Source: Stramenopiles sp. TOSAG23-2 (lineage: Eukaryota). Taken from it: a stretch of DNA of 54,130 nucleotides. Position numbers and translations under genes: made by a program. Within the stretch, counting starts at the first letter, position 1. Each line of letters starts with the position of its first letter. Positions 1-43,373 of the stretch are shown one piece after another. Under the pieces are notes generated by a model. It was given only the letters and a program-made list of their open reading frames with translations, ran no database searches and was not told the DNA's origin. Location of the stretch: the NCBI GenBank assembly GCA_900128395.1, contig LT649261.1, positions 1 through 54,130 on the forward strand. Direction: 5' to 3'.

Positions 1-2
1 CA

Positions 3-3000
3 ATGCCAATAACTACAACAGTACAAACAACAACAATGCCAATAACCACTACAGAACAAGCAACAACAACGTCAATAACTACTACAGTACAAACAACAAC
101 AATGCCAATAACTACTACAGAACAAGCAACAACAACGTCAATAACTACAACAGAACAAGCAACAACAACAACCACAGAATTTCCTACAACTACAGTTGCA
201 ACAGACGCATTGTGCTCTAATAATCCAGTATGTGACAATTTAGGACTCACTGGTAAATGTTGCCCAACCATAGATGATGTAACTCTCGATTGCTGTGGAA
301 CAACAACAACATCATCTACCACAGAGCAGCCAATAATAATAACAACAACTACTACTGTTATTAAACAAGATAATGTCCGAAAATGTTCAAGTGGTTTAAT
401 TGATTTTCCAATTGATAGCAATACAAATGAAAAAGAAATAGTAGTATACGAGTCAGAATCTCTATCTTCGATGGCGTTTGCAATCGCCGATGTTTATGTA
501 TACCCTAAATGTAAAAACGATTTACAATTTAATTGTCATTCTAAAAATGCGAATGAAGTACAAATAACAGAAATTGATGAAATAATAGAATCGCACCAAC
601 AAATAAGTAATGCTATTGTATCAGCTGATTATAAAGTAAAAGTGAAATATAATATTTCAATTATTGGTGTTAAAGATAATACAAATGGCGATGGTGTAAC
701 TTCAACAATTGTTAACTGTAGCACTAATTATCATTTTTTTAATTTATTTGATGTTAGTAACAATGACATATTACTACCATATTTTGATTTTGATAAACTA
801 CAGGAGGAAACAAAAACGTTTTTATTTGCCGGTGAAACGTTTACGATCTTAGCTAGCAAAAGGTTGAATGGCCCAGTTTTCTTTCCAAATAAAACCCACG
901 TGTATCTTAACTCACATCGTGTTTTAAATGAGAAATTAAATATAAATGCAAATGGACGTATACTTCAAATTGGCGTACCATCAAAAACACAACTTTGTGA
1001 CTCGCCTGAAATGGTCGAATGTGACGTAACATTACGTGTTATAAATTACAATTACATCGATAACAGCAACAAATTGATGCCTGTTAGTGATGAGAAAACC
1101 GTGCATTATATACGAAATCCTTGTCATAACAATCCCGAATGCGAAGCTGTTGTTGATAATTATCGTGATTATCCCAGTGCAAGCTGCCCAGTAGGTTTTG
1201 CTGGAAATTGTAAGGAATGCCCAAGAGGTGCTAGGTGTCCAGGTGGTGAAAGAATTTGGGCACTACCTGGTTTTGCATCTACTGTAGAGCCTTCCATTGC
1301 ACCTGATGGCGAAAAAGTCAGTAATGTAAGGATCGTGGCTTGCGCCGTACCAGCAGAACGTTGTCTTGGTTTTGTAAAATCAGAGGAAAAGGAAGTATGT
1401 GCTGTTGGATATGGTGGTCCAAAATGCGGTGGGTGTCAAGGGGGTTATTATAGCAAACCGGTAGGATCGCGCGAGTGTCAAAATTGCCCAAAAAGAAAGT
1501 CTTCTCTACCGACAGTCATTCTCCTTGCCTTGACATATTTATTTGGAATATTAATCATAGTCTTTATCGTTATTACTTTGGTTTCATATCTCGTTTTAAA
1601 ACGGAATGGTGGTACCCTGAAGGAGGGAATTTCACGTGCAAAAGAATTTATGATATATGTTTGCATTTCAGTAGCGTTGTTAAGCCAAGTATCAAGAGCA
1701 TCATTAGGAAAATTACCTAAATATATGGATTATTTTGCAACGTTTCTTGCTGTATTTCAAATGGACGTTTCAGGTCCTATCAGCCCAGATTGCATAAATG
1801 AACCTTTTTGGCGAGAAACAACATTATTTCAGATTTCGATCGTAACAATTGCATTTTTATCAATTTCCATGTCGAAGCGCCTGCGCTTGAAATATTGCCG
1901 AAGGTGTCGTAATACAATCAACAAAGCAAGGCATGGGACTGCGTTTTGGCTTTGTATATCGTATCCATTAGTGACAAATTTAGTAGTGAAAATATGCCAT
2001 TGCATCCCAATAGTGGAAGGACAGGATACCACTCATGTCTTGGCCGTGAATTCATTGGTAACATGTTATGTAGGAAAGCATAAATTGCCATTTATATTAG
2101 GTCTAATGGTTGGAGTGTTGCATGTTGTATTGTTTCCAATTGTTAGCTTGTTGACAATCTTTTACGTACGTCGAAAATATGTTTCATCATGGGATAGTAA
2201 AGTTTCAAATTTTTTCGATGGTAGACCGATGTGGAAATATTTTTTGCAAAATTCATATTTACCTCAATGGTTTTGGGTAAGGCAAATGGAATTAGGGATA
2301 TTATTTATTTCTACGTTGTGCAATCAAATATTTGCAGAACGTGATGTATTCGCATATTTGATTATCTACATGTTACTTCTTTGTATATCTACATTTGCAT
2401 ATTTTAAAACAAGACCATTTGTAGAGGAGGAACGATGGAAATTACCGGTACGAGTTTATACATTTTTTTGCACAGCTTGGTATGCGATAACAAATTACTT
2501 GTCATCGAATTTAGTGTTAGATCCAGATAAAGAATTTACACGGCTTTTACTTCAATTCATGTCAACAACAACCATGATCTTGTCCTTAATATTGTTCATC
2601 ATATTGATTGTTTGCTACATTAAAACATTGATTGATAGTGCAAAAGTAGGAAAGAAAAAAAAGGATGATCGAAAAAAATATTCTGTGCAATATTCCCAAA
2701 ATCCAATGATGTCTGAGATATCAACATTAGAGATACAAACGGTGGAATTAGGGTCTGCAATTGAAATGTCGAAAATAGATGCGACGTTTTCTGATAATAT
2801 AAATATAGACGGAGAAGGAAGAATTCAAAAGCATGATGAAATGGAGGATGTTTTAAAAGAAGAAGAAAAACTTAAAGTTGAAGTGACGACAACAAAAGAT
2901 AAACAAAAACAACAAAATATGAAAGAACCGAAAAAAATTGGTGGTGGTAGAAGGAAAAAAAAATCAAATCGTAGAAATATAAAACCACCTCCAAATACTA

Positions 3001-3287: not shown

Positions 3288-3980
3288 TCACCGCACCATC
3301 ACTCGTTTACCATCTTTATATTCACCAACATACACACCGCCATCAGCATATGTCATTGTACCTTTTCCGTGCATCATACCATCTTTAAAGTCACCATCAT
3401 ATACATTACCACTAGCATATGTATATGTACCTTTTCCATGCATCTTACCACCTATATATTCGCCAACATATACAGTACCATCAGGATGTGTACAAGTACC
3501 TTTTCCATGTCTCTTATCATCTTTAAATTCACCAACATATACATGACCACTATCATACGTATATGTACCTTTTCCATGGGATTTACCATCTTTAAAGTCA
3601 CCAACATATACACTACCACTACCATATGTATATGTACCTTTTCCATCTCTAATACCATTTTTATATTCACCAACATATACATCACCATCAGTCGTTGTAC
3701 ACGTGGCATCATGTACATTATCACTAGCATGCACTGTGGTTGGGCTGGAGAGAGCAGACGAAACGTGTGATGGCCAGAAAGGTCCCTTTTGGTGTTGGGG
3801 ATCCGATCCAGGAAAAAAGTATAGCTCTGATCCTACCAATATAATTTCTTCTGCGTGCACAAACAACTGCTTTAAAGACTTTCCACCGGCTGAAGAACTA
3901 ATGTGCGCAGAAGACACATGCTCCGCTGCCACTACAGCTGAACGATATGAAGAAGGTGGCAAAATTGCCTCTGTTGTATT
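3288..3980 (-). CDS. MORN-repeat protein, 5' end missing (fragment, or spliced to an unseen exon)
   Basis: About 6 repeats of YVGE/DFKDGKxHGKGTYTYxxG at 3288-3700. No in-frame ATG before the upstream stop near 4004. Confidence 0.7.
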   Translation of the reverse strand, partial: NTTEAILPPSSYRSAVVAAEHVSSAHISSSAGGKSLKQLFVHAEEIILVGSELYFFPGSDPQHQKGPFWPSHVSSALSSPTTVHASDNVHDATCTTTDGDVYVGEYKNGIRDGKGTYTYGSGSVYVGDFKDGKSHGKGTYTYDSGHVYVGEFKDDKRHGKGTCTHPDGTVYVGEYIGGKMHGKGTYTYASGNVYDGDFKDGMMHGKGTMTYADGGVYVGEYKDGKRVMVR

Positions 3981-7937: not shown

Positions 7938-8180
7938 ATTATAATAATACCTAAGGTAATATATAATAGTATGTCATAGAATATCATACTAGGAAATAAT
8001 AAAAATTTAAATTATAAATTTATAGTAAGCGTACATTTAAAATATATATAGATCTACTAATTATAATAATACCTAAGGTAATATATAATAGTATGTCATA
8101 GAATATCATACTAGAAATAATAAAAATTTAAATTATAAATTTATAAGTAGCGTACATTTAAAATATATATAGATCTACTA
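7938..8180. repeat. Tandem duplication, 2 x ~122 bp
   Basis: ATTATAATAATACCTAAGG...GATCTACTA begins at both 7938 and 8060. Confidence 0.9.
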
Positions 8181-8979: not shown

Positions 8980-9155
8980 TATTAGAATTATATTTCAAGA
9001 TATTGTGAATTATATACAGCCGTAGAAATTAAGGTATATAATAATGATGAAATTTTTCTAAATCAGGTATTAGAATTATATTTCAAGATATTGTGAATTA
9101 TATACAGCCGTAGAAATTAAGGTATATAATAATGATGAAATTTTTCTAAATCAGG
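8980..9155. repeat. Tandem duplication, 2 x 88 bp
   Basis: TATTAGAATTATATTTCAAG...AAATCAGG begins at both 8980 and 9068. Confidence 0.9.
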
Positions 9156-9591: not shown

Positions 9592-10599
9592 ATGTTTAAA
9601 AATGGAATCATTGTTTTGATGATAGCAACTACAATGGTAGTATCATCAACAGCACAAGATGGTTATAAGGTTGGTATTGAATTTACACACAGATGGGACG
9701 AGATGGACCAGGAAGAAAGCAATGGTCCTAAACATCAACTTTTACGTAACCACATTGCGAAATACAACCAAGACCAAAGTGATGAAAACGTTGGTGGTGG
9801 TAAAGTTTACGGCGATCAACTTTTACGTAACCACATTGCGAAATACAACCAAGACCAAAGTGATGAAAACGTTGGTGGTGGTAAAGTTTACGGCGAATAC
9901 AACAAAGGACCATACAAAGCAGGTGCTGAATATACTTGGGATGAAGATGCTAATGATGATGTTGGTGGTGGTCGTGTATACGGCGAATACAACAAAGGAC
10001 CATACAAAGCAGGTGCTGAATACAACTGGGATGAGGCAGAAGAAAATGTTGGTGCTGCCCCTCATTGGACAGTTCTAAAATGGTTGATTAAAGCGGATAT
10101 GAGACGATGCACAGCTTGTGGTGGCCTTTGTGAAAAAACAATGATGGATAAAAGAAATAAGATGTGTCATTGTGTACAAGATGCACGTTGTATGGTAGAT
10201 TGCCGAAATGGTGGAGATTGCTTATATCGTGGTAACCGACGACTTTCAACTGCAGTAAAACGTAGAAAATTAGGCAGAGTTTCAGCAAATTGTTATTTTA
10301 CACAACAAAGATTATGCGGTTATTGTGGAGGTTCAAACGAATGTCGCATGAAATGCAATAAAAAAAATGAAAAAAAATTACGAAAAGCTTGTGGATACAG
10401 AAGATTGATGCATTCGGTAAAAAATGGAAGAGGAAGAAGTTTAAGAAGAAGATTAATCGAACAAACACCAGCTGTACGTTACATGGCAAACAATTGCAAA
10501 TGGGGTTGTAGATTTACAGAAAAGCAATTTATTAAAAAATTTGGAAGACGAGATGCAATGTATGCAATCAACAACAGAAGAAGTATTAACTATAAGTAA
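9592..10599 (+). CDS. Secreted repetitive precursor protein: acidic repeats, then Cys-rich cationic modules separated by RRL/RRKL motifs
   Basis: Signal peptide MFKNGIIVLMIATTMVVSSTAQ. Duplicated QLLRNHIAKYNQDQSDENVGGGKVYG and YGEYNKGPYKAGAEYxWDE blocks. NRRL, KRRKL, YRRL and RRRL separate the Cys-rich units. Confidence 0.75.
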   Translation: MFKNGIIVLMIATTMVVSSTAQDGYKVGIEFTHRWDEMDQEESNGPKHQLLRNHIAKYNQDQSDENVGGGKVYGDQLLRNHIAKYNQDQSDENVGGGKVYGEYNKGPYKAGAEYTWDEDANDDVGGGRVYGEYNKGPYKAGAEYNWDEAEENVGAAPHWTVLKWLIKADMRRCTACGGLCEKTMMDKRNKMCHCVQDARCMVDCRNGGDCLYRGNRRLSTAVKRRKLGRVSANCYFTQQRLCGYCGGSNECRMKCNKKNEKKLRKACGYRRLMHSVKNGRGRSLRRRLIEQTPAVRYMANNCKWGCRFTEKQFIKKFGRRDAMYAINNRRSINYK

Positions 10600-12965: not shown

Positions 12966-13366
12966 AAAAGAGCGTCAATAACGTATATATATATATATAC
13001 ATATGTGTGTACATTTTTTAATTAATATTCGTACACACGTATGTATATTATTTTGTTGGGATAACCTGATGTAAAAATGAATAGTCGTCTAGGACCTAGC
13101 TTGCTAGCTGGGCTAGATTAGACCTGATGGATGACCCACTTTAACTTTTGGTCGCTCGACTCCTTTTCCTAGAGTCAATAGTGTGTATTGTTATTTTAAA
13201 ATAGCATCTCAATAGCATTATTATTATACACGAATGGTCGGGCCCACTTTTGGTATCCTTTTCGATACCGGTAGTCTAAAACTCAAATGGAATCCCTATA
13301 TATTAATATAATTAATGCCAACAACAAAAAAAAAATATAAACAAATCCAGAAATTGAATACATCTT

Positions 13367-13510
13367 AATCTATTATTGAAAAGAACTAATAGGATTACAC
13401 AATGTTGTATATTGAAAGAATCATATATGTATATATATAATCTATTATTGAAAAGAACTAATAGGATTACACAATGTTGTATATTGAAAGAATCATATAT
13501 GTATATATAT
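13367..13510. repeat. Tandem duplication, 2 x 72 bp, upstream of the FTase gene
   Basis: AATCTATTATTGAAAAGAACTAATAGG... begins at both 13367 and 13439. Confidence 0.9.
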
Positions 13511-13536
13511 ATATATATATACACACGCCATACAAG

Positions 13537-33425: not shown

Positions 33426-33840
33426 TGGAAAAAGAAAAAGATAATATACGTACTTCTTATTTTGTTCACGTAGCGCCATTATGTCATATGGTTTTCAGTC
33501 ATATGATATTCTTTATGCTAATAAGTTAAAATTTGCAGTAAAGATAATGGTTAAAATCTATGCATAAGTTATAATAATTTTATACTTCCCGTGGTAAATA
33601 ATATTTTGTTAAAATAGATATCATATATGACGCCTCGTACGAGTATATGTGCGTATATAAGGAAATTACTTGTATATCATATTATTTTTTCTGAAAATCT
33701 TCATAACATTCAAAATGAACTTTAAAATCTTCAATCTCGTAATATCTGCCATCATATTTACCAGGGATTCTCATCAGTGGACCATTACAATACTTGCATT
33801 TTTCAGCATGCCTGCAAACCATCAGCGGTAACATGTATGA
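33426..33840. repeat. Direct repeat copy 1 (~410 bp), containing an orphan last exon (33682-33811, minus strand) of the Zn-finger gene
   Basis: Near-identical to 42962-43373. Confidence 0.92.
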
Positions 33841-34279
33841 CGTACACATACCAGGTATTGTATGGTTCAAAAAAAAAAAGTGTTCCACAGTATTATATTC
33901 ACCTGCTATTGCCACCATATACAAACCGTTTTTTGATATTTCCACTTGATGTACACATTTTTTTGGTTATGCTTAGAGTATATAAAAATAGCGCTGAAAT
34001 CTGCCTATCAGGAAGAACCCGCCCTGAAAAATCAAAAAATCCAAAAAAAATTCATTTTAATTTGTTGTTGAAGGAAATACACAAATCGTATATATATCAA
34101 GATTACATTTTTTGTTCTTTGTTCATATATATACGTGATGATAACTACTACCCCCCCTCAATAAAACGAAAAAGAAAACAGTATAATAACTAAGAAAAAG
34201 AAGAAAATAATAATATGAAAAAAAAAAATTTTGTAATTTTGTAATTTTTATATAAATCATCAAAATTAGATATAATAAA

Positions 34280-35098
34280 ATGATGACGTTATTTTTTAAA
34301 TATTTAGTAATAATAATAATAACTTCAAGTATAATAGCATGTAACGCTGTTGGAGTGAAAGAGGAAATATGTGCAGGACAGAAAGATGTGATGCGTAAAT
34401 TAAACCGTGATGGAAAACTATGTAATGGTGCGGAAAATTGGAATACATGGTTTCATTTGAATTTCCCTGGTTGTGGAGAAAACAATAAGTGGACAGAACA
34501 TACGTTTAATAATGATGGTGTGAAACTGGTGAAAAAAGAACATATTGCTAGTGATAAATTTATACGTGACCTGAGTGGGGTATATGAAAAGGAACAGAAA
34601 ACGGAGATGAAAGAAATGTACTTTCTTAATTTAAACGTAGGAAAAGCGCCTTTGGTAGAAAAAGGGAAACAGTTACAAGTGGTTCAGAGACGTCGACTTG
34701 ATGATAGTTCACGTGGAAGGGAGTTATTAAGTGAATGGGATGGAACGGCAAATTCGGGGTCATTTAATCTTGTTAGGAATGTGACGAAGACGAGTGGTAC
34801 GATTAATGTGAATGGTGAATTAGAAATTGTTGGAATTGTTGGGGATGATGGAGTTAAGCCAGCAATTGATGGTGGGAATACGCCGGGGTGTACGAGTAGT
34901 TGTCCTGGGCATAGGGTGTTTTTTTTAAATACTGCGAATGATGAATTACGATTAACAAATATAACAATTCAGAATGGATATACGGTACGTTTTCTAATTT
35001 TGTTTTCTCATTTCTGATAATAAAAATTGTGTTGAACAATTGTTGTCTTTTCTTTTTCGTATTTTATCAAATTCAATATGGACTAACATTTATTTTTA

Positions 35099-35129
<31 letters not shown>

Positions 35130-35263
35130 ATATGATCATTTAATATATATATATTGTATCTTGAATATGATGGTATAGAATGTAAGTAAACGTTGAACTG
35201 ATGGTTGTGTCTTCTTTCTATTTTGTATTTTATATCAAATGCAATATGGACTAACATTTAATT

Positions 35264-35295
<32 letters not shown>

Positions 35296-38200
35296 GATCA
35301 TTTAATTAATATATATTGTATCTTGAATATGATGGTATAGTATGTAAGTAAACGTTGAACTGATGGTTGTGTCTTCTTTCTATTTCGTATTTTATCAAAT
35401 GCAATATGGACTAACATTTATTTTTATTATTATTATTATTATTATTATTGTTATATATGATCATTTAATAATATATATTGTATCTTGAATATGATGGTAT
35501 AGCGTGTAAGTAAACGTTGAACTGATGATTGTGTCTTCTTTCTATTTCGTATTTTATCAAATGCAATATGGACTAACATTTATTATTATTATTATTATTG
35601 TTATATATGATCATTTAATATATATACTGTATCTTGAATATGATGGTATAGGATGTAAGTAAACGTTGAACTGATGGTTGTGTCTTCTTTCTATTTCGTA
35701 TTTTATCAAATGCAATATGGACTAACATTTATTTAAATCGTTATAAATCAAGGGTGGGGGATTTTGGATAAATCGTGGAACTGCCACATTGACAAGTTGT
35801 ACTGTGTCTAGTAACACCGCTGTAAGTAAATTGAAATATATGTGTGTCTTTTTTATATCAAATGCAATATGGACTAACATTTATTTTTATTTTTTTTATT
35901 ATTATTATTATTATATATGATCATTTAATAATATATATTGTATCTTGTATATGATGGTATAGGATGTAAGTAAACGTTGAACTGATGGTTGTGGCTTCTT
36001 TCTATTTCGTATTTTATATCAAATGCAATATGGACTAACATTTATTTTTTTTTTTATTATTATTATTATTATATATGATCATTTAATATATATATATTGT
36101 ATCTTGAATATGATGGTATAGAATGTAAGTACATGTTGAACTGATGGTTGTGTCTTCTTTCTATTTCGTATTTTATATCAAATGCAATATGGACTAACAT
36201 TTATTTTTATTATTATTATTATTATTATATATGATCATTTAATATATATATATCGTATCTTGTATATGATGGTATAGAATGTAAGTAAACATTGAACTGA
36301 TGGTTGTGTCTTCTTTCTATTTCGTATTTTATATCAAATGCAATATGGACTAACATTTAATTTTATTTTTTTTATTATTATTATTATTATATATGATGAT
36401 TTAATATATATATTGTATCTTGTATATGAATGGTATAGGATGTAAGTAAACGTTGAACTGATGGTTGTGTCTTCTTTCTATTTCGTATTTTATATCAAAA
36501 GCAATATGGACTAACATTTATTTTTATTATTATTATTATTATTATATATGATCATTTAATAATATATTGTATCTTGTATATGATGGTATAGCATGTAAGT
36601 AAACGTTGAACTGATGGTTGTGTCTTCTTTCTATTTCGTATTTTATCAAATGCAATATGGACTAACATTTATTATTATTATTATTTATATTATATATGAT
36701 CATTTAATATATATACTGTATCTTGAATATGATGGTATAGGATGTAAGTAAACGTTGAACTGATGGTTGTGTCTTCTTTCTATTTCGTATTTTATATCAA
36801 ATGCAATATGGACTAACATTTATTATTATTATTATTATTGTTATATATGATCATTTAATATATATACTGTATCTTGAATATGATGGTATAGGATGTAAGT
36901 AAACGTTGAACTGATGGTTGTGTCTTCTTTCTATTTCGTATTTTATATCAAATGCAATATGGACTAACATTTATTTTCATTATTATTATTATTATTATTG
37001 TTATATATGATCATTTAATTTAATAATATATTGTATCTTGAATATGATGGTATAGCATGTAAGTAAACGTTGAACTGATGGTTGTGTCTTCTTTCTATTT
37101 CGTATTTTATATCAAATGCAATATGGACTAACATTTATTATTATTATTATTATTGTTATATATGATCATTTAATATATATATATCGTATCTTGTATATGA
37201 TGGTATAGAATGTAAGTAAACATTGAACTGATGGTTGTGTCTTCTTTCTATTTCGTATTTTATATCAAATGCAATATGGACTAACATTTATTATTATTAT
37301 TATTGTTGTTATTATTGTTATATATGATCATTTAATTTAATAATATATTGTATCTTGTATATGATGGTATAGCATGTAAGTAAACGTTGAACTGATGGTT
37401 GTGTCTTCTTTCTATTTCGTATTTTATATCAAATGCAATATGGACTAACATTTATTATTATTATTATTATTGTTATATATGATCATTTAATATATATATA
37501 TCGTATCTTGTATATGATGGTATAGAATGTAAGTAAACATTGAACTGATGGTTGTGTCTTCTTTCTATTTCGTATTTTATATCAAATGCAATATGGACTA
37601 ACATTTATTATTATTATTATTATTGTTATTATTGTTATATATGATCATTTAATATATATATATCGTATCTTGTATATGATGGTATAGAATGTAAGTAAAC
37701 ATTGAACTGATGGTTGTGTCTTCTTTCTATTTCGTATTTTATATCAAATGCAATATGGACTAACATTTATTATTATTATTATTATTGTTATATATGATCA
37801 TTTAATATATATATATCGTATCTTGTATATGATGGTATAGAATGTAAGTAAACATTGAACTGATGGTTGTGTCTTCTTTCTATTTCGTATTTTATATCAA
37901 ATGCAATATGGACTAACATTTATTATTATTATTATTATTGTTATTATTATATATGATCATTTAATAATATATATTGTATCTTGTATATGATGGTATAGGA
38001 TGTAAGTAAACGTTGAACTGATGGTTGTGTCTTCTTTCTATTTCGTATTTTATATCAAATGCAATATGGACTAACATTTATTTTTTTTATTATTATTATT
38101 ATTATTATATATGATCATTTAATATATATATATTGTATCTTGAATATGATGGTATAGTATGTAAGTAAACGTTGAACTGATGGTTGTGTCTTCTTTCTAT

Positions 38201-41200
38201 TTCGTATTTTATATCAAATGCAATATGGACTAACATTTATTTTCATTATTATTATTATTATTATATATGATCATTTAATAATATATTGTATCTTGTATAT
38301 GATGGTATAGTATGTAAGTAAACGTTGAACTGATGGTTGTGTCTTCTTTCTATTTCGTATTTTATATCAAATGCAATATGGACTAACATTTATTATTATT
38401 ATTATTATTGTTATATATGATCATTTAATATATATATATCGTATCTTGTATATGATGGTATAGTATGTAAGTAAACGTTGAACTGATGGTTGTGTCTTCT
38501 TTCTATTTCGTATTTTATTAACTAACCTTTATGTATTTTTAACACATCTTGTGAAAGGGTGGAGGAATATGGGTTAATATCGCTTCCGCAAAATTGTTCT
38601 TAAGCAATTGTATCTTTCAAGGTAATACTGTCAAGAACAAAGGAGGTGCCCTCTATATTAATATTAATGGGTGGTCTACACAACGGAAAGAATTATCTAT
38701 AATCAATACATCATTCATTGATGCTTCTGATACTATCGTTTTTTCAACAGCACCATCTGTACCATGTATATCTCCCTCCGAATGTATACCAGGAGATGGT
38801 GGAGCTATATCGAATTACAATTCCTCTGAATGTAGTAAAATTGCATGTGGGAAATGTCCAAAAGGAATGCGTCGTACATCAACCGAAGGCGAATGTTTAA
38901 CATGTGTTGTTGGGAGATATACTGATCAAATTGCACAAACGGCATGCAAGAATTGTGAAAGTGGCAAGTACAATTCAAAAAAAGGGATGACAAGTTGCAC
39001 GGAACCTTGTGAAGAAGGACATTATTGCCCAGGTGGTACGGGTAAAATATTGTGTCCTCGTGGATCATACCAAAACGAAGAAAGCATGCCAAAATGTAAA
39101 GAGTGCCAAGGTGGAACATACCAAGAAATAACAATAGAAACAGGGCAAGCCGATGAATCTTCTTGCAAAGATTGCCCGGTTGGGACATTTTTACGGTCTT
39201 CCACCAAATTTAGTAATCATGAAGGTATAAGTAATTGCAAAGAATGTGAAAAAGGTCGATATAATCAAAATAGAGGATCTGCTGCGTGCACACCCTGTTC
39301 AAATGGAAAATATTTCTACCCAAACATTGCACGGCAAGAAAGTGAGCTTCGCGCTTGTAAACAGTGTGCAAATAATACAATTACTTCCGACAGTGGACTT
39401 CTGGAATGCTATCCATGTACATTGGGCAAAACGGCAAACGACGCTCACACTAGTTGTGATACGGACCCGGATTTTTATGGCACTGCAAATTTGCCAGCTG
39501 CACAACAAGTATTCGAAGGAACGTCATACCAATACCCATTAACACTATCGAAATCACCGGAGGAAGAAAATGTTCAAATTATTATTTCAAGTTCTAATAA
39601 TACAAATTGTATATTGTCACATTCAATTGTTACATTTACAAAAAATAATTTTACTTCTGCCGTTGACATTGCAGTAACTGTAGCAAACAATTATATTGAT
39701 GAAGGAGTAAATAAAATTGTTTTTGTTTGCACATTAGACCACACGATTAAAAGCACAGATGCGAAATATGTAAATGGTGATGTGATCTCGTTTACAATCT
39801 CTGCCGTAAATAATGATATTGCCGATGTAAAATTACAATTAACAAAACCTGGCGGTGGTTTTGAATACAAATTAAAAGTAATTGGACCATTATCAGTTAC
39901 CGAAGGGACAAATACATCTTACGGAATAGTACTGGATACGAAACCAAGAAATAATGTGTTTATAAAATCTATTATTAAAGTTCCACAATCAGACGATCAT
40001 AAATTGGAAATGACATTAGACCCGGCGTTGATAACATTTACAACCTCAAATTGGAACATACCTCGTCTTGTAACGATGCACGCAAGCAGTGATTTGATTG
40101 ACAATCAGATCGACCAACGTTTTGAAGTGATGTATTATATTGAAACGGCAGATGAAGTATTTCTACGTAAAGCTGTAAACAATACTGTGATTGCGGAAAT
40201 ACGTGACGACGATAGCGCAGGCATAGTTATGTCAAGCAATAACCTGGATTTAATTGAATTAAAAGAAGGTGGTGAAAGTAAACAATTCAAAATTAAAGGT
40301 CTTTCCTCCGAACCGTTAGCAAATGTTAAAGTATTGATATCAGCAAAATCGAATGCAGAAAGCACAATAACAGATTTGATTGATATTGAACCAAAGTCAT
40401 TTACAATTGATAAATCCAATTGGAGAAACGTAAATGAGTTAATAACAGTAAAAGCGCTGGAAGGTAATTACCTTTCTTTAGGCACATCTTTTTCTCTTGA
40501 TATATCTGTGGAAAGTGGAGATCCTAAATATAATACTTTCGGTACAATGGCAAAACAGCTTTTATCGGTTGAACGTATCAATTCAATAGATACGGCGTTG
40601 CCAAAGATTGTTCAAGTTCAATTGGCACATGTCGACCGTTCATATTTACAAAGCTTGGTTTTAATTGAGTGGGAGTTGCCACCAAATATAAATGCGTCAA
40701 TAGCAAATATTAGTATTATGGCAGAAAGCGAGGACGGAAAGCAAACGGAAAGTATATTTAAACCTGGTGCAACAAAAGGGGTGTTACGAGAATTGTCACC
40801 ACCATTTGTTGATCAAGTTTATAAGTTTGATATAAAATTCAAATATAAATCTGGTATTTATAGTGATGGAAATCTATGGTCAAAGCTATGGAAAACAACT
40901 AAAGATTGTAGGGACGACGAATTTTATTTAGATGCCACTGGTAACAATATGATGAAATGGAAATGCAAATCTTGTCCAGATGGTGCATCGTGCAAAGGTG
41001 AAAAAAGCGAGAAAAATCTTTATGCCAAATTTGGTTACTGGGGCTACAATAAAACACAATATTACCCGTGCCTTCGTTCACAAGCATGTTTTGGAGGGAA
41101 AAATCAAGCATTTAAAGACCGTTTTAAAGATGTGAATGATGATAAAGCAATTGCATTTTGTGCAGACGGGTATCGTAACGGAAGCCGTTTATGTGCATCG

Positions 41201-42586
41201 TGTGATGTAAACTATGCTCGTGGTTCTAGTATAGGCGAGTGCAAAGTTTGTCAAACAGAAACAAATGTAGTAGTATTTATTCTTGGTGTTATAGTTGCAA
41301 TAGGTGGAACTTTCCTACTCGTTAAAATTACAGTATTTAAAGAACGTACTGTTAATTTTAGTGACGGTGTAAAGAAAATTGCACTTAGTTATTTGCAAAC
41401 GGTTTCGTTGGCACGTAATATAAATGTTCCGTGGAATCATACGTTTAGACAGTTATTCGTTGCGCAAGATGTTGTAACACGTGTATCAGAAGCCTTTTTT
41501 TCCTTGGATTGTGTGTTAAGCACTGCAACGTCGTGGGATGTTTTTGTACTTCGATATGTATGTGTACTTTTAATGCCTTTTCTTATTGTGCCGTTGACAA
41601 TATTTTGTATGAAACGTATTGGTGGCAATAAAGAACAAATTGTTGCTACATTAGTTTTGTTATGGTATCTAATGTTTCCAACATTTATACAATCGTTTGC
41701 AAAATTGATAAGTTGCACGGAAGGTATTGGTACAGAACAGTTACGTTATTTAAAAGTTGATCCAGAGATAGTTTGTTGGAAAGAAACACATTTAATAATG
41801 TTTTGCCTTGCTGGTCTTGTTTCATTAACATATATTATTGGGTTTCCAGTGCTTGGTTTGTACGTATTGCATAAAAGTGACCGTGAACTACCGGAAAATC
41901 GTTTAAAATATGGAATGTTATACGATGGCTATAACAACCAATATTATTATTGGGAGATAACAATGATATTGCGTAAAATTTGTATTATTGTTATTGGAAC
42001 ATTTGTAGCAGATAGTCAACAAATACTTTGCGTGTTGTTTGTATTGGCATCATTGATATTTTTAACAGCATACTACGAACCATTCTTGTCAAACAATTTG
42101 TTGCATTTGGAACTTGGTTCGTTATCATTGGCTTTCTTTACGTTCTGGGTAGGGGGTTTGTTGCAGAATGATCCAACCTGTGCTGATGACAGTGGTTTTT
42201 GGTGTGAAGGTGCAGCATATTTTGTTGCTTTTGTCAATGTTATTGGTATTTTTTACCTTGCATATGTCTTTGGAACTGCGAAATGGAAAGAAAAAGCAGA
42301 TGTGGTGATGGCTGTTGTGAAAACAAAGTGTCCTTGTTGTTATGTCAAACGTAATGATCCAAATAAGCACCGGGGCAATAGAAACGGTAGAAATACATGG
42401 TATGATGGTGATGCGACAGATAGAGGTACTGTTGAAGTTGCTATGGTGAAGACAAAGTCAAAGAAGGGAAATGGTAATGGACGGAACAGAAAAACGGAAA
42501 CTATAAATCCATTGAATGGAATTGATTTAACATCTATAGAGCATGTCGTAGAATTGCCTGATGTAGTTGGAAGCAAAGAATTGTAA
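34280..42586 (+). CDS. ~1600-1621-aa multi-pass surface receptor: signal peptide, RRRL/RELL pro-region, PMP/pectin-lyase-like beta-helix repeats, GCC2_GCC3/ephrin-receptor-like Cys repeats, Calx-beta/Ig-like domains, ~7-8 TM. Exons 34280-34984, 4 microexons, 35753-35821, 17 microexons, 38558-42586
   Basis: Exon 1 is 705 nt (phase 0) ending ...ITIQNGYT|GTACGT. The 69-nt exon encodes GGGFWINRGTATLTSCTVSSNTA. The last exon starts GGGIWVNIASAK, in frame with ORF 38594 (FQGNTVKNKGGALYIN). All junctions are AG/GT in phase 0. Confidence 0.88.
34985..35752 (+). other. Microexon array A: 5 introns enclosing four 3-nt exons AAT(35179-81), TAT(35341-43), CGT(35503-05), GAT(35652-54) = N,Y,R,D
   Basis: Each triplet lies in the context TGATGGTATAG|NNN|GTAAGT, and each intron carries GGACTAAC. 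Confidence 0.85.
35822..38557 (+). other. Microexon array B: 18 introns enclosing seventeen 3-nt exons starting at 35963,36122,36278,36439,36592,36741,36892,37056,37209,37373,37526,37688,37841,37999,38158,38311,38464 = D,N,N,D,H,D,D,H,N,H,N,N,N,D,Y,Y,Y
   Basis: 149-164-bp tandem units of GTAAGT...GGACTAAC-(ATT)n-...TGGTATAG plus a NAT codon. Confidence 0.85.
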
Positions 42587-42961: not shown

Positions 42962-43373
42962 TGGAAAGAAAAAGATAATATACGTACTTCTTATTTTGTT
43001 CACGTAGCGCCATTATGTCATATGGTTTTCAGTCATATGATATTCTTTATGCTAATAAGTTAAAATTTGCAGTAAAGATAATGGTTAAAATCTATGCATA
43101 AGTTATAATAATTTTATACTTCCCGTGGTAAATAATATTTTGTTAAAATAGATATCATACGCCTCGTACGAGTATATGTGCGTATATAAGGAAATTACTT
43201 GTGTATATCATATTATTTTTTCTGAAAATCTTCATAACATTCAAAATGAACTTTAAAATCTTCAATCTCGTAATATCTGCCATCATATTTACCAGGGATT
43301 TTCATCAGTGGACCATTACAATACTTGCATTTTTCAGCATGCCTGCAAACCATCAGCAGTAACATATGTATGA
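42962..43373. repeat. Direct repeat copy 2 (~410 bp)
   Basis: Near-identical to 33426-33840; here it is part of the intact Zn-finger gene. Confidence 0.92.

Follow-up and report, generated by a model that had tools for sequence, protein, structure and literature searches.

Contig LT649261.1 of the eukaryote Stramenopiles sp. TOSAG23-2 (assembly GCA_900128395.1), whose whole stretch of 54,130 nucleotides (nt) was analysed and is called the window here, carries on its plus strand a gene in which three large exons are separated by two arrays of 3-nt segments, four in the first array and seventeen in the second. Each of these triplets stands between the acceptor of one intron and the donor of the next, and the three large exons are open and in frame with the triplets. 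We favour, with confidence somewhat better than even, the reading that the triplets are real single-codon exons in a tandemly amplified cassette of one codon and one intron, and that the first letter of the codon, called letter 1 in the following, is under selection.

Anatomy of the gene and its arrays

Exon 1 (34280..34984), with ATG codons at 34280 and 34283, encodes a signal-like hydrophobic N-terminus, an N-terminal domain and the first coil, and ends in phase 0. It is followed by intron 1 (34985..35178; 194 nt), which has the donor GTACGT, the branch motif GGACTAAC and 92 AG-free nt from the branch A to a TATAG acceptor. This intron leads into array 1 (35179..35654), where the four 3-nt exons, AAT at 35179, TAT at 35341, CGT at 35503 and GAT at 35652, are separated by introns of 159, 159 and 146 nt. 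An ordinary short intron of 98 nt (35655..35752), with a 5' half as in the repeat unit and its branch A 27 nt from the acceptor, then precedes exon 2 (35753..35821), a 69-nt exon of 23 codons in phase 0 at both ends, which encodes one beta-helix-like coil starting with G-G-G-F and ending with N-T-A. Array 2 (35822..38466) holds seventeen 3-nt exons, each preceded by an intron of 141-161 nt: GAT at 35963, AAT at 36122 and 36278, GAT at 36439, CAT at 36592, GAT at 36741 and 36892, CAT at 37056, AAT at 37209, CAT at 37373, AAT at 37526, 37688 and 37841, GAT at 37999, and TAT at 38158, 38311 and 38464. The last intron (38467..38557; 91 nt; branch A 32 nt from the acceptor) leads to exon 3 (38558..42586), in which 1342 codons and a stop cover more coils, Cys-rich repeats like those of ephrin receptors and, close to the C-terminus, some seven hydrophobic segments. 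All of these features lie on the plus strand. Read in frame, the triplets would give N, Y, R and D at site 1, and five D, six N, three H and three Y at site 2.

This anatomy and its reading frame are established directly. In an exact search of the window, TGGTATAG followed by three letters and GTAAGTA matches all 21 units, and the spacer between acceptor and donor is exactly 3 nt in every one of them, bounded by the canonical AG and GT. The triplets are AAT (7), GAT (6), TAT (4), CAT (3) and CGT (1), so that 20 of 21 have the form NAT; they extend from 35179, the start of the first, to 38466, the end of the last. The counts, coordinates and invariant flanks that the original prediction had given for the triplets, from the letters of this DNA, are exact. 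A relaxed search (AG, 1-12 letters, GTAAGT) found no extra units within the window. Tandem Repeats Finder reports a single array at 35101-38518 with a period of 153, 21.9 copies, 88% matches and 6% indels, and higher-order periods of 317 and 470 bp within it; the units stand head-to-tail and differ in length from copy to copy, including the length of a (TTA)n block. No Rfam family was found on 34900-38700 at E up to 1, so no known snoRNA or other RNA lies in the units.

The host product seems, judging by its predicted features, to be a large secreted or membrane protein of the surface type. In a hydropathy scan of exon 3, the seven or so hydrophobic segments form a multi-pass membrane region in the C-terminal part. 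Pfam finds Ephrin_rec_like in exon 3 (E 4.1e-10), the Chlam_PMP profile reaches 19.4 bits there, under its cut-off of 20.6, and no NACHT or ANK domain was found by Pfam in the host gene. In the relative P0070, the Beta_helix profile scores 20.6 bits against a cut-off of 25.9, and an AlphaFold2 model of the same protein has strand pairs parted by non-strand linkers, at a mean pLDDT of 49.5, which is too low to rely on or to place the linkers. G-G-G/A and then a hydrophobic residue open both exon 2 and the first part of exon 3, and both finish near N-x-A or N-x-V, which places the triplet arrays exactly at the turn between successive coils.

Splice signals, letter 1 and relatives

All 23 introns are in phase 0, and each has an intact donor, a CTAAC branch motif and an acceptor. 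The donor is GTAAGTA in the 22 introns after intron 1, and AG is absent between the branch site and the acceptor in 23 of 23. Within this one intron family, introns leading into a triplet (21 of 23) have lengths of 141-194 nt and distances of 75-92 nt between the branch A and the acceptor, whereas in the two that end at normal exons, which have their 5' half in common with the unit introns, this distance is only 27 and 32 nt. The extra stretch in the unit introns consists of (TTA)n and AT-rich sequence. Twelve unverified intron candidates elsewhere in the window have branch-to-acceptor distances of 13-69 nt. The RNA of one unit intron (37691-37843) is unusually unstructured: of 200 dinucleotide shuffles, 198 equalled or surpassed it in folding (z +1.76). 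According to a preprint on human and chicken neural microexons, the region from the branch site to the 3' splice site is extended and unpaired there as well, and this has been proposed to relieve steric constraints (PMC12871342); by analogy, the parallel may serve as a mechanistic lead. The contrast between triplets and normal exons in one intron family also offers a natural test of how the spliceosome handles tiny exons.

The arrangement has two consequences for the transcript. An in-frame stop lies five codons into every unit intron, and intron retention would therefore truncate the protein. Conversely, with a donor 3 nt downstream of every internal acceptor, the use of any of these acceptors leaves its triplet in the mRNA.

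Letter 1 is a clear outlier against the intron columns. When the 21 units were aligned with MAFFT and the 131 columns with at most one gap and outside the (TTA)n block were counted, 112 columns were invariant, 18 had two states, and a single one, letter 1 of the triplet, had four (A7 G6 T4 C4, 1.96 bits). Among ungapped columns, those ranking next in entropy have two states and reach 1.00 and 0.99 bits, which bears out the earlier statement that no nearby intron site shows four states. Letter 2 differs once, in the CGT unit, and letter 3 is constant in the 21 units. In a simulation with a uniform per-column rate of 0.149 fitted to the other columns, a simple model applied to a question posed after the data had been viewed, a four-state column is expected anywhere in about 1.5% of the runs and within one of the three triplet columns in about 0.04%. 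None of the letter-1 states is restricted to a single unit, and all four occur in both arrays, which means that the variation is old relative to the amplification and does not resemble a burst of new mutations. The flank differences are 4.40 for units with the same triplet and 6.73 for units with different triplets, and 0 of 5000 permutations reached this. TAT stands on four upstream haplotypes, three of them identical to haplotypes of AAT or CAT units; this needs repeated change, or very short conversion tracts, at exactly letter 1.

The excess of variation at letter 1 points to selection on the encoded residue. The original prediction had gone further and proposed diversifying selection; the outlier on which it was built stands, but purifying selection on a fixed heterogeneous peptide, combined with concerted evolution of the introns, fits the data equally well. 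It had also regarded N, D, H and Y as an alphabet of binding residues. The restriction to these residues is seen, but splice or residue constraints on letters 2 and 3 could also produce it.

The comparison with relatives is a direct observation. A phmmer search with exon 1 gave 26 matches, and comparison of exon 1 with longer proteins gave no match. The nine close relatives that were aligned, which are open reading frame (ORF) fragments from public assemblies, keep L-R-L-T-N-I-T-I-Q-N-G-Y followed by a last codon for T, A or V, and in all nine the ORF reads from the same codon into the same start of intron 1; the intron position is therefore common to a marine gene family. The contigs of the relatives are short; in a cluster of 20, the 14 listed members that have contig records lie on contigs of 784-1693 bp. 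Exon 3 has homologs in protist data, namely P0001, at 76% identity and N-terminally truncated, and P0002, at 49%; the homologs are surface proteins of protists.

Three relatives, P0070, the gene model P0078 and P0002, are intronless at both sites. In the intronless relatives, the N-x-A that closes a coil is joined to the G-G-G of the following one by linkers such as GN, SRNS, GD, TEGS, RSA, ES and RDF, and by a simple script rule the linker is 2-5 residues long in 10 of 10 coil segments of the three proteins. Their coils measure 25-33 residues, with one 50-residue segment split by eye into two of 25, and the coil of exon 2 measures 23. If all triplets were skipped, the linker would be 1 residue at site 1 and 0 at site 2, and neither length occurs among the relatives (0 of 10 segments). 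With all four triplets included, site 1 gives an ungapped alignment to P0002, where the four residues stand opposite R-N-Q-Y. On this comparison of predicted proteins, the relatives' linkers argue for the use of at least some triplets, not necessarily all 17. Translation of at least some triplets is likely. The original prediction had held that the triplets are translated, and this gains support from the uniform phase 0, the intact splice signals and the intronless relatives, which always have residues at both sites; it presupposes splicing, which we infer, as we do the number of triplets that reach the mRNA.

The public gene model g8858.t1 (P0088) contains exon 1 in identical form, then reads into intron 1 (window 34283-35020) and jumps elsewhere, and has no triplets. 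It is a faulty model, in which exon 2, the triplets and the connection with exon 3 are all absent. As the structure has escaped the public model entirely, standard annotation does not see coding sequence of this kind.

RNA libraries contain the host gene or a near-identical relative of it. Twenty RNA-type runs (seawater or marine metatranscriptomes) each contain 5-12% of the gene's sampled words. When four runs, X1-X4, were compared with 33900-35900, contigs of X1, which is RNA by guess, and of X3, which is polyA, matched 34393-34814 with 95-100% likeness, and X4 gave none. A metagenome scan with a loose 14-letter pattern returned single chance matches, and among the matches listed 0 of 118 loci were like the unit or the gene beyond (TTA)n. 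A stricter array pattern occurred in 0 viral contigs and 0 genome contigs, none of 71 pattern matches for exon 1 relatives in viral contigs was confirmed, and a protein query from the unit ORF reading through the triplet gave no candidate array.

A separate observation concerns the relatives P0062-P0101, in which the first 190 or so residues are near-identical and the differences concentrate in the last 35 or so (window 34850-34984). Three places make up this variable patch, which lies just upstream of the triplet array: the two residues enclosed by a Cys pair, the residues that follow V-F, and the final codon (T, A or V), next to intron 1.

Weighing the explanations

We propose the following course of events for the single-codon exons. 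If an intron together with 3 nt were duplicated in tandem, a 3-nt exon between twin introns would result, and unequal crossing-over between these near-identical introns would let the array grow, with the loop gaining or losing one residue each time and the introns being kept alike. If the 23 introns were then removed one at a time, the turn that precedes coil 2 of the beta-helix-like ectodomain would hold four residues (N, Y, R, D), and the turn that precedes coil 3 would hold up to seventeen, each of them N, D, H or Y. Letters 2 and 3 (A and T) are fixed and likely double as donor positions -2 and -1, while also keeping the residue polar and stop-free. Letter 1 would be free of splice constraints, and its four states would be maintained by selection that favours either diversity or one particular residue order. 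The long, AG-free and poorly folding stretch probably holds U2 away from the U1 bound 3 nt past the acceptor, and this may be what permits the splicing of so tiny an exon.

If the triplets are spliced in, a protein loop has been grown and varied one residue at a time through unequal crossing-over on a one-codon/one-intron cassette, and 17 consecutive one-codon exons, near the physical limit of exon size, occur in an organism whose splicing is unstudied. A bolder extension, which we consider doubtful, is that splicing itself generates the loop diversity, each transcript carrying a different subset of the 17 (and the 4) single-codon exons. If this were true, one gene would give a very large family of surface-loop variants, differing in length and in their N/D/H/Y (plus R) sequence, and unequal crossing-over would reshuffle the repertoire between generations. 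It would be a protist counterpart, on an extracellular receptor, of the diversity proposed for the mini-exons of Tuber NLR genes.

Several observations weigh against the favoured reading and temper our confidence in it. The whole case rests on one gene in one genome, and the 21 units are copies of each other, so that the invariant signals and the long branch-to-acceptor stretch amount to about one observation, not 21, that is, about one against the two introns ending at normal exons. The tie between triplet type and unit haplotype likewise means that the triplets were largely co-amplified and that few independent events lie behind the 21 copies, and letter 1 may be a local mutational hotspot. 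No contig of the four runs covers 34838-35842, so no exon junction is visible in them. In local alignment to P0002, the all-skipped protein scores 153 and the all-included one 138, the latter being lower because the 17-residue insert is penalised; 17 residues at site 2 are more than any linker among the relatives. The beta-helix assignment of the ectodomain, predicted from sub-threshold profiles and a low-confidence model, is weak.

Some of these observations would also follow if the triplets were real and translated and letter 1 carried no signal of selection: letters 2 and 3 would be fixed by splicing or by the need for a polar, stop-free residue, and letter 1 would drift, with old variants carried along. 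The link of triplet type to the flanking haplotype agrees with this, as does the lack of singleton letter-1 states with all four in both arrays, which old co-amplified variants would give. The A at letter 2 agrees with the usual donor consensus, which is A at position -2, where U1 and U5 pair. Drift leaves unexplained why there is one four-state column against 130 others with at most two, and the TAT triplets, on haplotypes common to AAT or CAT units, again call for repeated change or very short conversion at letter 1; we regard this account as unlikely, though one to be taken seriously. Somewhat less probable, in our estimate, is that the repeats are a minisatellite in two long introns (34985-35752 and 35822-38557), with the internal splice sites as by-products of a duplicated intron end and the triplets never in the mature mRNA. 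An array with a 153-bp period, 21.9 copies and (TTA)n blocks of varying length inside the units is indeed typical of a variable-number tandem repeat, the frame survives skipping, and the all-skipped protein scores slightly higher against P0002. The gene model P0088 is also without triplets, but since it reads into intron 1, it counts as a faulty model and not as evidence. In such a gene, the cell must ignore 21 consensus sets of donor, branch site and acceptor to remove introns of 0.8 kb and 2.7 kb, in a window whose candidate introns measure about 70-200 nt, and any use of an internal acceptor would leave a triplet in the mRNA, with the next donor 3 nt on. Skipping would moreover give the linkers of 1 and 0 residues that none of the ten coil segments in relatives has, and a minisatellite offers no reason for the four-state column.

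Two further explanations carry much less weight with us. The assembly of tandem arrays is difficult, direct repeats of 410 bp (97% identity) on both sides of the gene hint at recent rearrangement, and the related contigs in public assemblies are short (784-1693 bp), all of which would suit a decaying gene copy or a repeat assembly artefact with an array of no present function. We consider this very unlikely, given that the three large exons are open and in frame, exon 3 alone over 1342 codons, that every splice signal is intact, that exon 1 occurs in RNA-library contigs at 95-100% likeness, and that the unit variants fall into consistent haplotype classes. The units could also be copies of a mobile intron (introner) inserted repeatedly side by side, each with its own full set of splice signals. 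However, no copy of the unit was found elsewhere in the 54-kb window, where the best outside matches printed are (TTA)n-like and 17-40 nt long; the haplotype blocks that units have in common, like the higher-order periods of 317 and 470 bp, fit unequal crossing-over, and repeated insertion would not yield an identical 3-nt spacing with a variable first letter. This origin is hardly credible.

Two more candidates were considered and rejected. A recursive splice (ratchet) site needs an AG abutting the GTAAGT donor, and here three letters always stand between them. Diversity-generating retroelements, which are prokaryotic, mutate A in AAY codons, and here letter 2, which is also A, is changed in just 1 of 21 units.

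Known systems and surroundings

The closest published case is that of the 3-bp mini-exons in the NACHT-ANK (nank) gene superfamily of Tuber melanosporum, for which alternative splicing has been reported (Iotti et al. 2012, as described in PMC4986451, PMC9815663 and PMC13449251). As these citing papers describe it, tens of codon-sized exons stand in series in one gene there as well, each with its own intron, and the array lies in the presumed ligand-recognising region of the protein and is a proposed source of diversity. The architecture is shared, but the Tuber genes encode fungal intracellular NLRs, whereas the present gene encodes a surface or membrane protein of a protist, with beta-helix-like coils; the alternative splicing reported for Tuber is a further difference. 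The near-identical tandem introns, the NAT vocabulary and the extended branch-to-acceptor stretch are features of the present array, and the comparison extends as far as the citing papers' descriptions of the Tuber genes.

Isolated 3-nt microexons are described for animals, for instance in Drosophila homothorax (micro-Ex8), RPS24, cytohesin-1 and MAP4K5, and are mentioned for the dinoflagellate Amphidinium carterae (PMC12584245). They too consist of three bases and add one residue, and the vertebrate neural microexons share the extended, unpaired branch-to-acceptor region (PMC12871342); but they are single exons with unrelated introns, and here there are 21 tandem copies of one intron family. 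Intron gain by tandem genomic duplication has been described for the RdRp gene of potato (PMC4974935) and for Drosophila (PMC2891723). In these accounts, a duplicated segment that spans a splice junction makes a new intron, as in the origin we propose for the arrays; the cases they describe are single, unlike the arrays of 4 and 17 found here. In a literature search, with subscription journals mostly outside its reach, no description of 3-nt exons in tandem arrays came to light for any protist.

The micro-exon genes (MEGs) of schistosomes produce secreted or surface proteins from runs of tiny symmetric exons of 6-36 nt, and variation arises by exon skipping. The likeness to the present gene lies in the secreted or surface protein and the tiny symmetric exons; the difference is that the MEG exons are not single codons and the introns are not a homogenised tandem repeat.

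The surroundings of the gene contain further repeats. The 410-bp direct repeat lies at 33431-33840 and 42965-43373, about 9.5 kb apart, and flanks the whole gene; minus-strand ORFs with paired Cys/His motifs lie in and beside both of its copies. The pair hints either at a segmental duplication of recent date or at neighbours that were duplicated and had the gene inserted between them. Tandem duplications with two copies and 97-100% identity occur at four places, 7938-8180 (121 bp), 8980-9155 (88 bp), 9734-9896 (81 bp) and 13366-13511 (72 bp). Fresh duplications of this short tandem kind seem to be frequent in the genome, in agreement with the origin proposed for the array.

At 3306-3691 of the window, a 69-bp (23-codon) tandem repeat is present in 5.5 copies of 79% identity; read from the minus strand, it resembles a protein repeat rich in G, Y and K, which may be of the MORN type. 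A coding-like 33/66-bp repeat, rich in CAA and AAC and 88-94% identical, occupies window positions 1-176 and probably represents a Q/N/T-rich low-complexity protein segment at the window edge.

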